Source: a virus (Duplodnaviria; Heunggongvirae; Uroviricota; Caudoviricetes). From it: a stretch of 64,000 nucleotides of DNA. How positions within the stretch are numbered: position 1 is the first letter of the stretch; every line of letters begins with the position of its first letter. Shown here piece after piece: positions 18,001-24,000 of this stretch. A program made the position numbers. The stretch lies in the IMG/VR virus record IMGVR_UViG_2859805564_000001, one strand, 5' to 3'.

Positions 18001-21000
18001 CGGTTCGAAATGGCGTGACAGCTCAGCCACCTGGACGTCACAGGACAGGGCGAGCCATTTCAGCACCTGGGCACGCCGGGGGATTATTTCCGACCGTCTG
18101 GCAACGGCGATTCTGCGCCATGCGGGAAGAGTGGCGCTAAACGCGGGGGCATCATCGACAGTATCAGAGGTGCGTCCGTCATCGCCTTCCGGTGCAGAAG
18201 TCACAGGCGTCACAACACTGCTCTCTTACCTTGCCAGCGAGTCAGAGGGAAGCCTGAAAGTACAGGGATGGTCAGCCAGTGGCGGCAGGGCAGAAGTGGT
18301 CAGCGATGCGGAGGGAACCGGAGGTAAGGCTGTGAAGGTGACCAAGGAAGCCGGTAAAAGCAGCTGGGTGCTGGAGTACGCTGCAGGCAACGGTGCGGCT
18401 CTGTTACAGAAAGGGGGGCAGATTCGCTGCCGCTTTAAGGCTTCGGGAGCGCTGGCTGCGAACCAGTATGTTATGGCGTTTTACTGGCCGGTATCGTCAC
18501 TGCCACAGGGCGTTGTCCTGACCGGCGATGGGGGGAATAACCTGCTGGCAGCGTTCTACATCCAGACGGATGCAAAAGACCTGAATGTGATGTACCACAA
18601 TGCGAAAGTGGCGACAAACAACCTGAAACTGGGAAGCTTTGGCGCATTTGATAACGAATGGCATACGCTGGCTTTCCGCTTTGCCGGGAATAACAGCCTT
18701 CAGGTGACGCCGGTTATTGATGGTCAGGATGGCACACCGTTCACGCTGACGCAGTCACCGGTCAGTGCATTTTCGGCGGATAAGTTGCATGTGACAGACA
18801 TTACCAAAAGTGCGACTTACCCGGTACTGATAGACAGCATTGCGGTGGAAGTGAATAACGCGGACGCCGCTGCATGATAAAAAAAGCCGCCAGTTACCGG
18901 AATGGACTGGCGGTGGTAATACCTATGGAGAAAAAATAAAGGAACGATACTTTCGTACTCTGTTTTTTTAAATGAAAACAGTTCTTATTGTCAACAATAA
19001 CGGAAAGAAATTATGACATTTCTGAACCAGTTAATGCTGTACTTCTGTACGGTGGTCTGTGTGCTGTATCTCCTTTCGGGTGGATACCGGGCCATGCGTG
19101 ACTTTTGGCGCAGACAGATTGACAAAAGGGCCGCTGAGAAAATCAGCGCCAGTCAGTCAGCCGGAAGCAAACCCGAAGAGCCGCTCGTTTAGCGGCAACT
19201 TTCTTAATCACACCTTTCGACGAGAAAATCCCATGTCAGAAATTACATCCCTGGTCACTGCTGAAGCAGTGAAGGACGTCCTGCGCTCTGAAGAAGTCCT
19301 GAGTGCACTGAAACAGAAACTTCGCCATAACCTGGAAGCGCGTCTTGATGCAGAAGTGGATGCCATTCTGGATGAACTGCTGGGCGCACCGGCAGCTGCG
19401 GAGCCGGAAGGCATCGCGGGAGAGGGGAGTGCTTCAGATAGCGGTGACCCCACACCTGACAGCGACATGATGATGTAAGCATGCGTCAGGGACCATCGGT
19501 GTGTGCCGGTGGTCTTTTTTATTGTTGTGAGCTTCCGGATTGCGGGAGGCGGGGTATGTACCAGATGGAAAAAATCACAACAGGTGTGTCATACACCACG
19601 TCAGCGGTGGGAACGGGCTACTGGTTCCTGCAGTTGCTGGACAGGGTTTCCCCGTCTCAGTGGGCGGCAATAGGCGTGCTGGGGAGTCTGCTGTTTGGTC
19701 TGCTGACGTACCTGACGAACCTGTATTTCAAAATCAGAGAGGACCGGCGTAAGGCGGCGCGGGGAGAGTAAGCTGATGAGCCGGAAATTCCGCTATGGTT
19801 TATCAGCTGTCGTTCTGGCGCTGATTGCCGCAGGGGCTTCTGCGCCTGAAATCCTGGATCAGTTTCTGGATGAAAAAGAAGGTAACCACACCACGGCATA
19901 CCGTGATAGTGCGGGTATCTGGACCATCTGCCGTGGAGCCACCCGGGTGGATGGTAAGCCTGTTATTCCTGGCATGAAGCTGTCGAAGGAAAAATGCGAC
20001 CGGGTTAACGCCATTGAGCGTGATAAGGCGCTGGCATGGGTGGAGAAAAACATCAAAGTGCCACTGACTGAACCCCAGAAAGCGGGGATCGCGTCATTCT
20101 GCCCGTATAACATTGGCCCCGGTAAGTGTTTCCCGTCGACGTTTTATAAACGAATTAATGCAGGCGATCGCCGGGGTGCATGCGAGGCGATTCGCTGGTG
20201 GATTAAAGACGGTGGCAGAGACTGCCGTATCCGCTCAAATAACTGTTATGGTCAGGTATCCCGTCGCGACCAGGAGAGTGCGCTGGCGTGCTGGGGAATC
20301 GACAGATAAGCAGAATATTTTGCTGAAAAATGACGTTGGCCAACGCGGGCGGATAACACGAAATCCTGCGAACTGGCAAAACCTAAGTGAATAAAGTCAG
20401 GAACATTGTTTCACGCTGAGGCACCGTAATGGTGTCTTTGTCATTTCTGCGCTTCGCACAAGCGTAAATAAACCAAAGAACCTTTCAGGATGAGCCCTGG
20501 TGGATAACCGGCAGTGGTCTGGTTAACCCTCTTTGGGCTGGTTATTCCTGTGCGTAGGGTTCATCACTAAAAGGAAATAACCGATGAATATGATGACCGT
20601 GCCGTTTCACGGCGATTCTCTTTATGTGGTTAACCATAATGGCGAACCGTATGTTCCAATGAAACCCATTGTTGAGGGGATGGGGCTGGCTTGGGCTCCA
20701 CAATTTACTAAGTTAAAACAACGATTTGCCAAAGGCGTTACGGAAATCATAATACCTTCTGCTGGTGGTGAGCAAACAATGACTTGTCTTGCTCTGCGTA
20801 AGCTGGCTGCCTGGCTTCAGACCATCAACTCAAACAAAGTTAAACCTGAAATCCGCGACAAGGTAATCCAGTATCAGGAAGAGTGCGACGATGTTCTCTA
20901 TGAATACTGGACGAAGGGGGTTGTCGTTAATCCCCGTCGAATGAGTGTGATGGAAGAACTCAATCAGGCTTGCGCTGACATGAAACGGGATAAAAACATT

Positions 21001-24000
21001 GCCAGTGTGTTTGCTACCGGGCTGAATGAGTGGAAACAGGTTAAAGCCGCGCATGTATCAAAAATCCGCACATTGATAAACGAAGCGAATCTGCTGATTG
21101 ATTTTGTCCTAGCTGATACAGGCAAAGGGAAAATAACAAAGGCGGATTGATGGAGTAGTGGCTAATGATATCGGATAAACTCATAACGCTGGCGAAGATC
21201 CTCTGTGTAATCGTCGGCATTTCATTTTTAGTCATGCTGGTTGCCATTTTCTTTTCCACCGCCTGGCGAGTCCTGACGTTATCGGGACTGGTGGGGTGAA
21301 AGAGAGATGAACCGTGTTCTGTGTGTGGTGATTATTGTCCTGGCGGTTGGCTGTGGTGCGCTGTGGCTGGCAACAAACCATTACCGTGACAACGCGCTCA
21401 CCTACAAAGCGCAGCGAGATAAAAAAGTCAGAGAGCTGGAGCTGGCAAACGCAACCATTACTGATATGCAGGTGCGCCAGCGTGATGTTGCTGCGCTTGA
21501 TGCTAAATACTCGAGGGAATTAGCCGATGCGAGAGCTGAAAATGAAACTCTGCGTGCTGATGTTGCCGCTGGTCGTAAGCGCCTGCGGCTCAACGCCACC
21601 TGCCCCGGTACCGTGCGTGAAGCCACCGGCACCTCCGGCGTGGGCAATGATGCCAGCGTCGAACTCTCTCCAGTTGCTGGACGAAACGTTCTCGGTATCA
21701 GAGACGGAATCATCAGCGACCAGGCAGCACTGAGAACGCTTCAGGAATATATCCGCACTCAGTGCTTGAATTAACAGAGCCAGCATGATCGCTGGCTTTT
21801 TCATATCTGAATTTCACCGCGCACCGCAGCGCATGATAACCACCGAACCTGCCCCTTTGGAATGAGCCTTTGAGGATACCAGTTAGTGCTGGCGAGCCTC
21901 GGTGGGCTGGTTTCCTATGCGGCAAAGGTTCATTTCAAAGAACAGGTATACGACATGAAATCATTAACCCTCTTCAATCAGCCAATCCGTGTCGCTGAAG
22001 ATGGCATGATCTGCCTCACTGATATGTGGAAAGCCAGTGGTAAAAGTGAATCTGAATCTCCATACCACTACCTGAGAAACAAGCAGACCAAAGAGTTCTT
22101 AGCCGAGCTGGAGAAAAACCACGAATCTGTGGTTTTTACTGAGCGCGGTGTACACGGTGGAACATATGGCGGGAAGTTTGTTGCTTATGATTATGCAGCA
22201 TGGCTAAACCCCGGATTTAAATATGCAGCCTATAAAGTCCTGGATGACTACTTCACCGGAGAACTTCAGCATCGCAACAGCTTAAGTGCGCAGCTCAATA
22301 TGAAGTGCCATGAGTTTGATCAGAAAAAAGATATGGCGAGCTTCTGTGGACAAGGGCTCGCGGCATGGCGCTATACGAAGCCAGTGTTGGTCGCTGAGAT
22401 TAACTCCTTGGCTAACCAGCTGCAGATTACGATCCCCGGGCTTCCGGGATGAGTGATCGTGTCATTGAATGCGCCTCCAGAGCGGGGCGCGACTTCTCAG
22501 AGTTCATGAAAGGCGAGAAGGGCATGATGGAAGCATTGGCCTCGGTGGATGAGTTTGGCGAGCAGCTGCGCCTCAACGGCTGTGTCAATCATCACTTTGT
22601 CAGCTACATGATGCGGAACTCGATCATGCAGGCATTCATGGACATGGCAAAAGCCGAGAGGAAAGAAGAGCGCCGGCGTAAGCGAGCGGAAGCAAAAGCG
22701 AAGTAGTTATTACAAAAGCCATTCCCTACAGAGTGGCTTTGATAATGGCTTATACCCTACACGGGATAACTTAACTGATATCCCTTTTAACGGATAAAGG
22801 CATTTCAGCCTGACATAGCCATGCGCCGCATCGTCGCCGTATTCCCGCATTAACAGAGACCGCAGCCACCTTATCTGCGTGAGTGTGCGGGGATAATCAA
22901 AAACGATGCACACCGGGTTTTCTCATTTTTCACGAGATGGGAGCGATTTCCCGCGAAGCCGCCTGTCCGGTGCGGTGGTGGAAGAAACCGGATAAAACAA
23001 CCGCATTGTGCAAATATCGATCAAATATGGTGCTGCTGTGTGAAATCTGAAAAATCACAGCGGTCATTATGCATCAGTTTTTAACACAGGACGTCAGAAC
23101 GTGACATGGCAAAGCTGGACTGGAAAAAGCTGGAGCAGGCATTCCGACGCGAACATGCCGAAACGGGAATAACATTACTGGACTGGTGCCGGAAGAAAAA
23201 GATTAATTACAACACCGCCAGAACCCGTATAAAAATGGGCAAAATCGATCATGAAATTGATCATAAAACCGATCATGAAATCGATCATGACATCTCAGAT
23301 GAAGAACCCTGCAATGACGCGGGTTCCGGCGATGAAAAATGCGCAAAAAACTCTGAAAAAAACTGCGCAAATTCGGCAGAAACGAAACGGATTCGTGGTT
23401 CCCGACTTTTACCACCTTCAAACGCTTTTTCTCAGCGAAACACCCACGCTGTAAGACACCGTGGATACGCGAAGTATCTTGAGGCAGATAACCTCATGGA
23501 TGATGCGTCCGATATGGTGCTGTTCGATGAACTGGTGTTCACCCGGGCCCGCGCACTTTCAGTAACTAAGGCACTTAAAGGGATGTTCGCCGACCTGGAA
23601 GAGGCAACTGACGTGGAAACCCGTGTTGCTCTTTACGACAAAATACTCAAAGCTGAACAGGCCCTTGACCGGAATATTGCCCGTATCGAGTCAATTGAAC
23701 GCTCATTGCTGACGCTGGACGTCCTGGCTGAGACAGCACCAAAACTTCGTGCTGACCGGGAAAGAATCAACGCCGCCAGAGATAAACTCAGAGCTGAAAC
23801 CGATATTCTGACCAGCCAGCGTCGGGGCGTTGTTACGCCTGTCAGTGACATCGTGTCATCGCTGCATGAAATGAGTAATTCGGGGAGACTGGATGACATT
23901 CCGGAAGAATGAACCGCGATGTGATGAGCCGTCAGAAATGACCGAGGCTGAACAACGTCTGTTCATCATGACTAAACTGAGCAATCCCTGGTGGCGGCTC

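Follow-up and report, generated by a model that had tools for sequence, protein, structure and literature searches.

In Shiga toxin (Stx) phages such as 7888 (AJ279086), Stx2 II (AP005154), ArgO145, VT2phi_272 and YYZ-2008 a gene named ant, encoding 188-190 amino acids (aa), lies between the endolysin gene R and the spanin gene Rz. The slot after Rz holds rha in P22, ES18 and phi80, and in HK620 and phage 2851 hkbK/hkbL and kilA, respectively, lie in this place between Rz and the small terminase gene. Both places are occupied in the DNA described here, IMG/VR record IMGVR_UViG_2859805564_000001, a stretch of 64,000 nucleotides (nt) from a virus of the Caudoviricetes, referred to below as the window. 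It carries a gene for an Ant-like protein between R and Rz and a gene for a KilA-N protein after Rz. The R-ant-Rz and post-Rz KilA-N arrangement is already known and is standard in Stx and P22-like phages. What is new is that both late genes lie behind a homologous structured leader of about 140 nt without an Rfam family. The conservation of this leader, its structure and its link to the Bro-network of domain-shuffling phage proteins appear not to have been noted in earlier literature.

The Lysis Region and Described Systems

Positions 19400-23200 of the window were 100% identical to Shigella phage Ss-VASD (KR781488 / NC_028685), an Stx1a-converting phage of Shigella sonnei placed in the genus Oslovirus of the Sepvirinae. 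A position in the Ss-VASD record minus 10320 gives the position in the window. The features of the lysis region are as follows.

19556-19771, plus strand: holin S, phage-21 type (Pfam Phage_holin_2_1, E 2e-32; the RefSeq holin coordinates map here)
19776-20309, plus strand: endolysin R, a lysozyme (Pfam Phage_lysozyme, E 3e-25)
20418-20438, plus strand: terminator-like hairpin followed by a T-rich tail, directly 5' of leader copy 1 (terminator scan)
20446-20591, plus strand: structured leader copy 1, P22F-like (covariance model R1, 76.3 bits, E 2e-15)
20584-21150, plus strand: Ant-like gene, 188 aa, P22_AR_N + ORF11CD3 (Pfam, PHROG)
21165-21299, plus strand: small open reading frame (ORF) of 44 aa (PHROG 4906, E 6e-29)
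21307-21774, plus strand: Rz, i-spanin (Pfam Phage_lysis, E 4e-39)
21527-21733, plus strand: Rz1, o-spanin, embedded in Rz (Rz1, E 5e-21)
21778-21797, strand not specified: GC-rich hairpin AGCCAGCATGATCGCTGGCT followed by TTTTCAT, the terminator 5' of leader copy 2 (stem from the terminator scan)
21816-21960, plus strand: structured leader copy 2, P22F-like (model R1, 54.9 bits, E 1e-10)
21955-22452, plus strand: KilA-N gene, 165 aa, KilA-N + ORF11CD3 (Pfam; start taken from HK620 hkbK)
22449-22706, plus strand: gene of 85 aa, hkbL homologue (PHROG 875, E 3e-54)

The original prediction, made from the sequence alone, had placed an antirepressor-like gene between the endolysin and Rz/Rz1 and a KilA-N gene with a small gene after Rz. 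Profile searches, which it had proposed as a check, bore this out, with P22_AR_N at E 1.3e-43, KilA-N at E 8.3e-16 and the 85 aa ORF in place. The term "inserted" is fair for the Ant-like gene because endolysin and Rz overlap by 4 nt in P22 and HK620 and are about 1 kb apart in Ss-VASD. Mitomycin C lyses Ss-VASD lysogens (PMC4943565), and the insertion therefore has no disabling effect on lysis.

The ant orthologues of the Stx phages have the same leader upstream and the same small ORF downstream. At 85-88% nucleotide identity they differ from the Ss-VASD gene by a sequence divergence of about 12-15% only. Stx2 II has bor after Rz, where Ss-VASD has KilA-N. HK620 and phage 2851 have a homologous leader in the post-Rz slot and, unlike Ss-VASD, no ant between R and Rz. 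The HK620 leader is a diverged variant, scoring 104.7 bits compared to up to 156 bits for the closest matches. In P22, ES18 and phi80 rha shares terminator, leader and the ORF11CD3 C-terminus with the KilA-N gene, but its N-domain is Phage_pRha and not KilA-N or P22_AR_N. Among phage records both modules occur in one lysis region in Ss-VASD only, and the whole 2.5-kb stretch is also present in 19 complete E. coli genomes.

P22 Ant, the immI antirepressor, is a 300 aa protein with P22_AR_C, expressed from its own promoter Pant under the control of Arc, Mnt and the sar antisense RNA. None of these is present here: no arc- or mnt-like ORF and no promoter-like site was found upstream of the Ant-like gene, where a terminator and the P22F-like leader lie instead. 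Phi24B Ant is the only Stx-phage Ant which has been tested experimentally, and it is a different gene from that of Ss-VASD. It is an early gene upstream of qut/pR', and its similarity to P22 Ant lies mainly in the C-terminal 104 residues (82% identity). Without it, pR' activity after induction falls to about 27-56% of the wild-type level (PMC3064807). It speeds derepression and has no effect on superinfection (Fogg et al. 2011, PMC3064807). No equivalent is annotated in the nin region of Ss-VASD.

Leader Structure and Covariation

About 190 nt upstream of ant and of kilA-N aligned with each other and with the regions 5' of P22 rha and HK620 hkbK. Leader copy 2 was 88.6% identical to the P22 rha leader, and model R1 found exactly two copies in the window. 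Minimum free energy (MFE) folds of nine diverged copies agreed in placing a small GCGC hairpin first and a long imperfect hairpin after it. The outermost stem of majority-type leaders and of the Ss-VASD ant copy is ACCUUU:AAAGGU, which holds the Shine-Dalgarno (SD) sequence 9 nt 5' of the AUG. In copy 1 ACCUUU (20480-20485) is predicted to pair with the SD AAAGG (20570-20574), and in copy 2 ACCUG (21847-21851) is predicted to pair with CAGGU containing the SD (21943-21946). The MFE was -48.7 kcal/mol for copy 1 (z -3.1) and -55.5 kcal/mol for copy 2 (z -3.9). Folding of the antisense strand was weaker (z -1.9 and -1.6, respectively).

The predicted pairs were then counted in alignments of homologous leaders. 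In the model-fitted alignment 97.2% of cells were paired compared to 35-49% in slid controls, and 22 of the 34 pairs had changed on both sides; none of 500 shuffles equalled this. When 19 diverse leaders were aligned by MAFFT without reference to structure, 87.8% of cells were paired (39-46% in slid controls). Double changes occurred in 10 pairs and 27 cells, and 0 of 500 shuffles matched this. RNAalifold on the full MAFFT alignment gave a poor and different structure, because the flanks were misaligned and the P22-type sequences were out of register by 1 nt. Per-sequence MFE folds, the covariance model and explicit pair counts were used in its place.

Neither late leader matched Rfam at gathering level, and at E <= 10 chance-level matches to small nucleolar RNAs and one weak minus-strand match were all that was returned. 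The C4 and IsrK models had no plus-strand match to the late leaders even at E <= 10, and the C4, IsrK and Xcc1 matches of the window were confined to 4.5-5.6 kb. The weak match, to STnc430 (21766-21937), antisense to the kilA-N leader and terminator, scored 21 bits compared to a gathering threshold of 47 (E 2) and is probably due to chance.

Distribution of the Leader and Relation to P22F

Across 100 sources searched, model R1 returned 104 matches, including P22, ES18, HK620, CharmingMan and RothD, and a pattern scan of IMG/VR found the leader in at least 120 stretches. More diverged copies of about 37 bits exist, so the family is broader than the seed pattern. Among the matches listed, the ORF after the leader encoded Ant-like proteins, several KilA-N types (165-251 aa), pRha proteins, an HNH endonuclease or a 75 aa product, and a Bro-N-like gene was recognised by eye. 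The leader was about 85-95% conserved in front of these non-homologous N-domains. In CharmingMan one of two copies precedes an HNH gene and the other a TerB-like gene, and in RothD a single copy stands upstream of a homing endonuclease between Q and the holin. Since HNH and TerB-like genes also follow it, the leader marks late accessory cargo generally and not antirepressors specifically.

The upstream neighbours of the leaders were late genes on the same strand. They included Rz, endolysin, Q, minor tail protein T and DUF6246, the last downstream of a Big_2-domain protein. Further neighbours were a gpK-like NlpC/JAB protein, a Mu-F-like head protein and a gpV-like spike. Paired or nearby cassettes were seen in some phages, with cargo consisting of an HNH endonuclease, a TerB-like gene and the 75 aa ORF. 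The loci recorded for these and for the more diverged copies are L006 (1525-1666 and 2809-2944), L113 (two copies about 490 nt apart), L098 (6100-6234) and L009 (2119-2253).

Part of this leader has already been detected as RNA. Ten small RNAs were reported from P22-infected Salmonella by RNA sequencing (2026, PMC13397905). One of these, P22F, is 89 nt long, was confirmed by reverse transcription PCR, ends 6 nt before the rha AUG and was given "no known function" (PMC13397905). It was reported as an uncharacterised small non-coding RNA and is homologous to both Ss-VASD leaders. P22F is identical in sequence to the long hairpin of the P22 rha leader, and thus the leader hairpin does occur as an accumulating RNA in one phage.

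The Ant-Like and KilA-N Proteins

Both late genes encode a KilA-N/APSES-like winged-helix module joined to ORF11CD3. In the Ant-like protein P22_AR_N was found at residues 5-113 and ORF11CD3 scored more weakly (E 8.6e-6). The protein matched PHROG 524, "anti-repressor Ant" (E 1e-105), and its N-terminus was 42% identical to residues 10-136 of P22 Ant over 128 aa (E 7e-32). P22_AR_C was not found by Pfam search, the C-terminus being ORF11CD3, while P22 Ant itself scores P22_AR_C at E 7e-31. The Ant-like protein is not a truncated P22 Ant, as a P22_AR_N+ORF11CD3 architecture of 187-192 aa is kept at 64-88% identity in Escherichia, Salmonella, Enterobacter, Serratia, Photorhabdus, Xenorhabdus, Proteus, Providencia and others. 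An AlphaFold model (29 sequences) had a mean predicted local distance difference test score of 68.6, with block means of about 74-91 at residues 11-110 and low-confidence C-terminal helices. In this model the N-domain resembles the APSES/KilA-N fold.

Matches to the ant gene at 85-88% nucleotide identity were found in 279 phage records, and in 255 of these they spanned 80% or more of the gene. Shigella phage 7888, Stx2 II and many other records name it "ant". A comparative study placed Ant phams in 126 of 279 Stx phages (PMC8136144). In a literature search no study of what the ant gene between R and Rz does was found, and no published test of repressor binding or inactivation by this subfamily. 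The 44 aa ORF downstream of ant has no annotation in the Ss-VASD record, is hydrophobic by eye and is possibly a membrane protein. It accompanies ant upstream of Rz in about 31 leader-bearing loci and could be related to lysis.

In the 188 aa ORF of the KilA-N gene the KilA-N domain lies at residues 31-124, and ORF11CD3 scored E 3e-13. The ORF coordinates of the original prediction held with one exception, the KilA-N start, which had been set at GTG 21886. This is also the GenBank start (Ss-VASD gp49), and it lies inside the leader hairpin, 69 nt 5' of an ATG at 21955. The ATG is probably the real start, since HK620 hkbK starts at the equivalent ATG, the commonest gene call in the family is 165 aa (cluster P0122, 1030 members) and 21886-21954 falls within the conserved non-coding leader found by model R1. 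The annotated product of P22 rha in AF527608 starts "VLASLGGLVS...", the same over-extension into the leader from a GTG (L002 2501-2569), and the real start of rha is likewise probably the ATG 69 nt downstream.

The ATG of the 85 aa gene overlaps the KilA-N stop codon (ATGA), and the gene belongs to PHROG 875, of unknown function. The pair is about 95% identical in nucleotide sequence to hkbK/hkbL of HK620 and kilA of phage 2851, and 31 records cover at least 80% of it. The 85 aa gene occurs without KilA-N in HK022 and the mEp phages. Searches of PDB sequences with the Ant-like and KilA-N proteins returned noise only, and no NCBIfam model matched either late protein. Membership of a PADLOC defence system was not assigned, the matches to the candidate systems PDC-S22 and PDC-S05 being weak and partial only.

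The C-terminal 65 or so residues of the Ant-like, KilA-N and P22 Rha proteins were mutually similar (E 2e-8 and 1e-8), P22 Rha being pRha+ORF11CD3. Another pRha+ORF11CD3 protein, P0133, was 97% identical to the KilA-N protein across the C-terminal 77%. This near-identical C-terminal part behind pRha shows recent swapping of N-domains. The KilA-N gene itself has no Phage_pRha domain, and the only pRha gene in the window is an early one (4748-5533).

Transcription Signals

A GC hairpin and T run begins each leader region. Homologous leaders keep the hairpin at the same place with a differing stem sequence, and the ES18 record annotates the equivalent hairpin as a terminator. No sigma-70-like promoter was found by scan upstream of the Ant-like or KilA-N gene. 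Only two sigma-70-like sites were present in the 19.0-23.2 kb region, fewer than in shuffles, and neither lay upstream of either gene. The -10-like positions in the leaders were, by eye, not conserved between leader variants. The LexA box CTGT-N8-ACAG had no match at 19-23 kb, its three matches in the window all lying at 50-57 kb. A LexA-controlled antirepressor of the Gifsy type was rejected, as no LexA box lies upstream of the late genes.

The late promoter pR' is annotated in the Ss-VASD record at window position 14687-14714 approximately. With a terminator upstream and neither a promoter nor a LexA box, both genes would be made only from Q-antiterminated late transcripts. Such late-only synthesis would be too late to start this phage's own induction.

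Two further possibilities were considered for the region. The integration host factor (IHF) consensus WATCAANNNNTTR, sought in the leaders on account of the Rha phenotype in IHF-deficient hosts described below, was absent from the region. Morons are said, after Hendrix and Juhala, to have their own promoter upstream and a terminator downstream. The cassettes described here are not morons, as no promoter-like site lies upstream and the terminator is upstream instead of downstream.

Early Bro-Network Genes and Prophage Setting

The original prediction had counted four antirepressor-type genes, two of them near kil. The count was correct at the domain level, and no fifth Bro-network gene turned up when all ORFs of 50 aa or more in the window were searched with phmmer. 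All four have the two-domain build of the Bro-network, in which an N-module (KilA-N, Bro-N, pRha, ORF6N, P22_AR_N) and a C-module (ORF11CD3, ANT/KilAC, P22_AR_C, others) are shuffled (domain set of Iyer et al. 2002; domain list and name "Bro network" in PMC10111431). The early pair and its RNAs are as follows.

3818-4492, minus strand: Bro-network gene 1, ORF6N + C-terminal domain common to gene 2 (Pfam)
4531-4614, minus strand: RNA of the sRNA-Xcc1 family, directly 5' of the ORF6N gene (Rfam, 79.6 bits compared to a gathering threshold of 53)
4748-5533, minus strand: Bro-network gene 2, Phage_pRha + Ash, AnrP-like, 261 aa (Pfam)
5450-5638, minus strand: IsrK (5563-5638) and C4 antisense RNA (5450-5537), 5' of the AnrP-like gene (Rfam gathering level, 61.8 and 77.4 bits, respectively)

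The proteins of the early pair were 45% identical overall (BLASTP E 2e-55), the last 100 or so residues being mostly identical. This C-terminal module of about 100 aa is outside Pfam coverage (PHROG 17980) and stands behind the differing N-domains ORF6N and pRha. An early pair with a common C-module parallels the late pair with its common ORF11CD3.

In Gifsy-1 the isrK-orf45-anrP module produces a translationally silent anrP mRNA which IsrK activates in trans, with expression of AntQ as the result (PMC4825925). A similar orf45-anrP fusion was noted in S. dysenteriae (PMC4825925). The layout of IsrK, C4 and the AnrP-like gene in the window matches that module. Because the AnrP-like gene as annotated (start at 5533) and the C4 RNA overlap, its "Ash" N-terminus may stem from a fusion with orf45 or from translation of an RNA gene. 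In both Gifsy-1 isrK-orf45-anrP and P1 c4/immI an antirepressor-like Bro-network gene is kept translationally silent by a structured RNA. With IsrK, C4 and Xcc1 before the early pair and the leaders before the late pair, all four Bro-network genes of the window lie behind structured RNAs. The late leaders differ from the Gifsy-1 and P1 RNAs in having no C4 or IsrK model match and no special complementarity. Trans-activation by the phage's own IsrK, C4 and Xcc1 RNAs was not supported, as the duplex energies were no better than those of mononucleotide shuffles (z -1.1 to +1.5 in a crude test).

The repressor CI, of the LexA/S24 type, is encoded at 8665-9378. A restriction-modification system is carried by this Stx phage on the minus strand at 6151-8570, early-left between the Bro-network genes and cI. 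It consists of a BsuBI/PstI-type restriction endonuclease and an Eco57I-like methyltransferase. A strong match to the small RNA family STnc100 (195 bits) lies on the plus strand at 16511-16724, between stx1B and a SASA-family esterase gene which is presumably nanS-p-like. Past the end of the Ss-VASD record, from about 52532 to 64000, the best E. coli matches were annotated as IS21 istA/istB, recombinase, tape-measure and baseplate proteins. This other mobile DNA in the last 11 kb or so rules out that the window is a circular permutation of the Ss-VASD record, and indicates that the window came from a lysogen chromosome in which a second element adjoins the prophage.

Interpretation of the Late Cassettes

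The Ant-like and KilA-N genes are probably late, leader-gated accessory cassettes of the Bro-network, and neither lysis machinery nor a switch for the phage's own induction. Each cassette is built of an intrinsic terminator, the structured leader and a variable N-domain fused to ORF11CD3. One sits as an insert between R and Rz, an arrangement found in most Stx phages, and the other occupies the post-Rz slot that holds rha in P22, ES18 and phi80 and hkbK in HK620. Transcription would come only from Q-modified RNA polymerase passing from pR' through the terminators late in lytic growth. Translation may be gated further by the leader hairpin, via processing or opening of the stem. The proteins would act in trans via the N-domain, on DNA or on a repressor-type partner of the host or of co-resident elements. 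ORF11CD3 might, at a guess, mediate oligomerisation, that part of the structure model being of low confidence. On the simplest reading the start of induction belongs to CI, and possibly also to the early genes.

Several points weigh against this interpretation. P22 Ant, which has the same N-domain, is proven to bind repressor, so direct antirepressor activity of the Ant-like protein is possible. It is also possible that a weak or non-sigma-70 promoter lies inside the leader, beyond the reach of a consensus scan. Sequestration of the SD by the leader stem is a thermodynamic prediction. The leader is mostly near-invariant, so the covariation comes from few lineages (P22 type, HK620 type and the Ss-VASD ant copy), and the best covariation figures are those of the model-fitted alignment, which leans towards the structure. 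Accumulation of the leader hairpin RNA is known from the P22 copy only (PMC13397905), and P22F could be a decay intermediate without regulatory meaning.

The original prediction had suggested that the genes are functional antirepressors, which with the two early genes give layered control of induction or induce hetero-immune neighbours by cross-talk. This is unlikely. The similarity of the N-domain to P22 Ant speaks for it, as does the ability of P22 Ant to inactivate a heterologous repressor, that of lambda (summarised in PMC3064807). Trans-acting antirepressors coordinate the Gifsy prophages (PMC3121763), Gifsy-1 AnrP, a homologue of the gene near kil, raises antQ transcription (PMC4825925), and the late products could still act on other prophages or satellites. 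However, P22_AR_C is absent from the Ant-like protein, and the Ant with a measured effect, that of Phi24B, is a different and early gene with a P22-Ant-like C-terminus. The terminator and leader, with no promoter or LexA box, place synthesis after commitment to lysis, and HNH and TerB-like genes use the same leader and slots. Layered control of induction is not upheld by these results.

Less likely still is that the cassettes are selfish cargo moved by recombination, with leader and ORF11CD3 serving as homology arms for hopping N-domains or cassettes and with little or no benefit to the phage. The high conservation of the leader 5' of non-homologous N-domains would fit this, as would the range of insertion sites (after Rz, between R and Rz, and after Q, gpT/DUF6246, gpK-like, Mu-F-like and gpV-like genes), the HNH endonucleases in some cassettes and chimeric proteins such as P0133. 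The annotation note of ES18 gp79 adds that P22 Rha affects growth in hosts without IHF, the sole annotated phenotype. Rha was reportedly found to be deleterious in such hosts by Henthorn and Friedman in 1995. On the other hand, the Ant-like protein keeps its length of 188 aa and its 64-88% identity across many genera, and its gene is fixed in hundreds of Stx phages; this argues for purifying selection and therefore for a function.

A role of the Ant-like gene and the adjacent 44 aa ORF in lysis timing, suggested by their location inside the S-R-Rz cassette, by the co-inheritance of the small hydrophobic ORF with ant and by the GenBank note "regulation of host cell lysis" in AP005154 (Stx2 II), is highly improbable, as the predicted fold is of the DNA-binding APSES/KilA-N type, homologous cassettes are also found among clustered tail and head genes, lysis by P22, HK620 and lambda proceeds without ant, and the GenBank note is an unsupported annotation.

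The interpretation as late, leader-gated cassettes can be extended to the whole leader family, although the extension is offered tentatively and is somewhat doubtful. An uncurated family of cis-regulatory leaders homologous to P22F may travel with Bro-network, HNH and other potentially toxic cargo into many late-operon slots of Enterobacterales phages. It would keep the cargo untranslated until the SD stem is opened by a specific event late in infection, for instance cleavage by an RNase or the action of a factor in trans. The proteins would then be late effectors acting on co-resident prophages, satellites or host DNA.

Biological Significance

The label "antirepressor" of the Ant-like gene is an annotation by partial homology. 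Tallying the "Ant" genes of Stx phages as regulators of induction (e.g., PMC8136144) mixes at least three unrelated architectures, of which one has been tested. In the GenBank records, Ss-VASD gp49 and P22 rha both probably start too early, within a non-coding leader. With the gene arrangement itself known, it is the P22F-like leader family alone that may merit further study. If the leader gates translation, this would explain how KilA-type, Rha-type and HNH cargo is tolerated inside essential late operons, and would give a function to the unexplained P22 small RNA P22F. In Stx phages it would set the timing of these proteins relative to toxin release.

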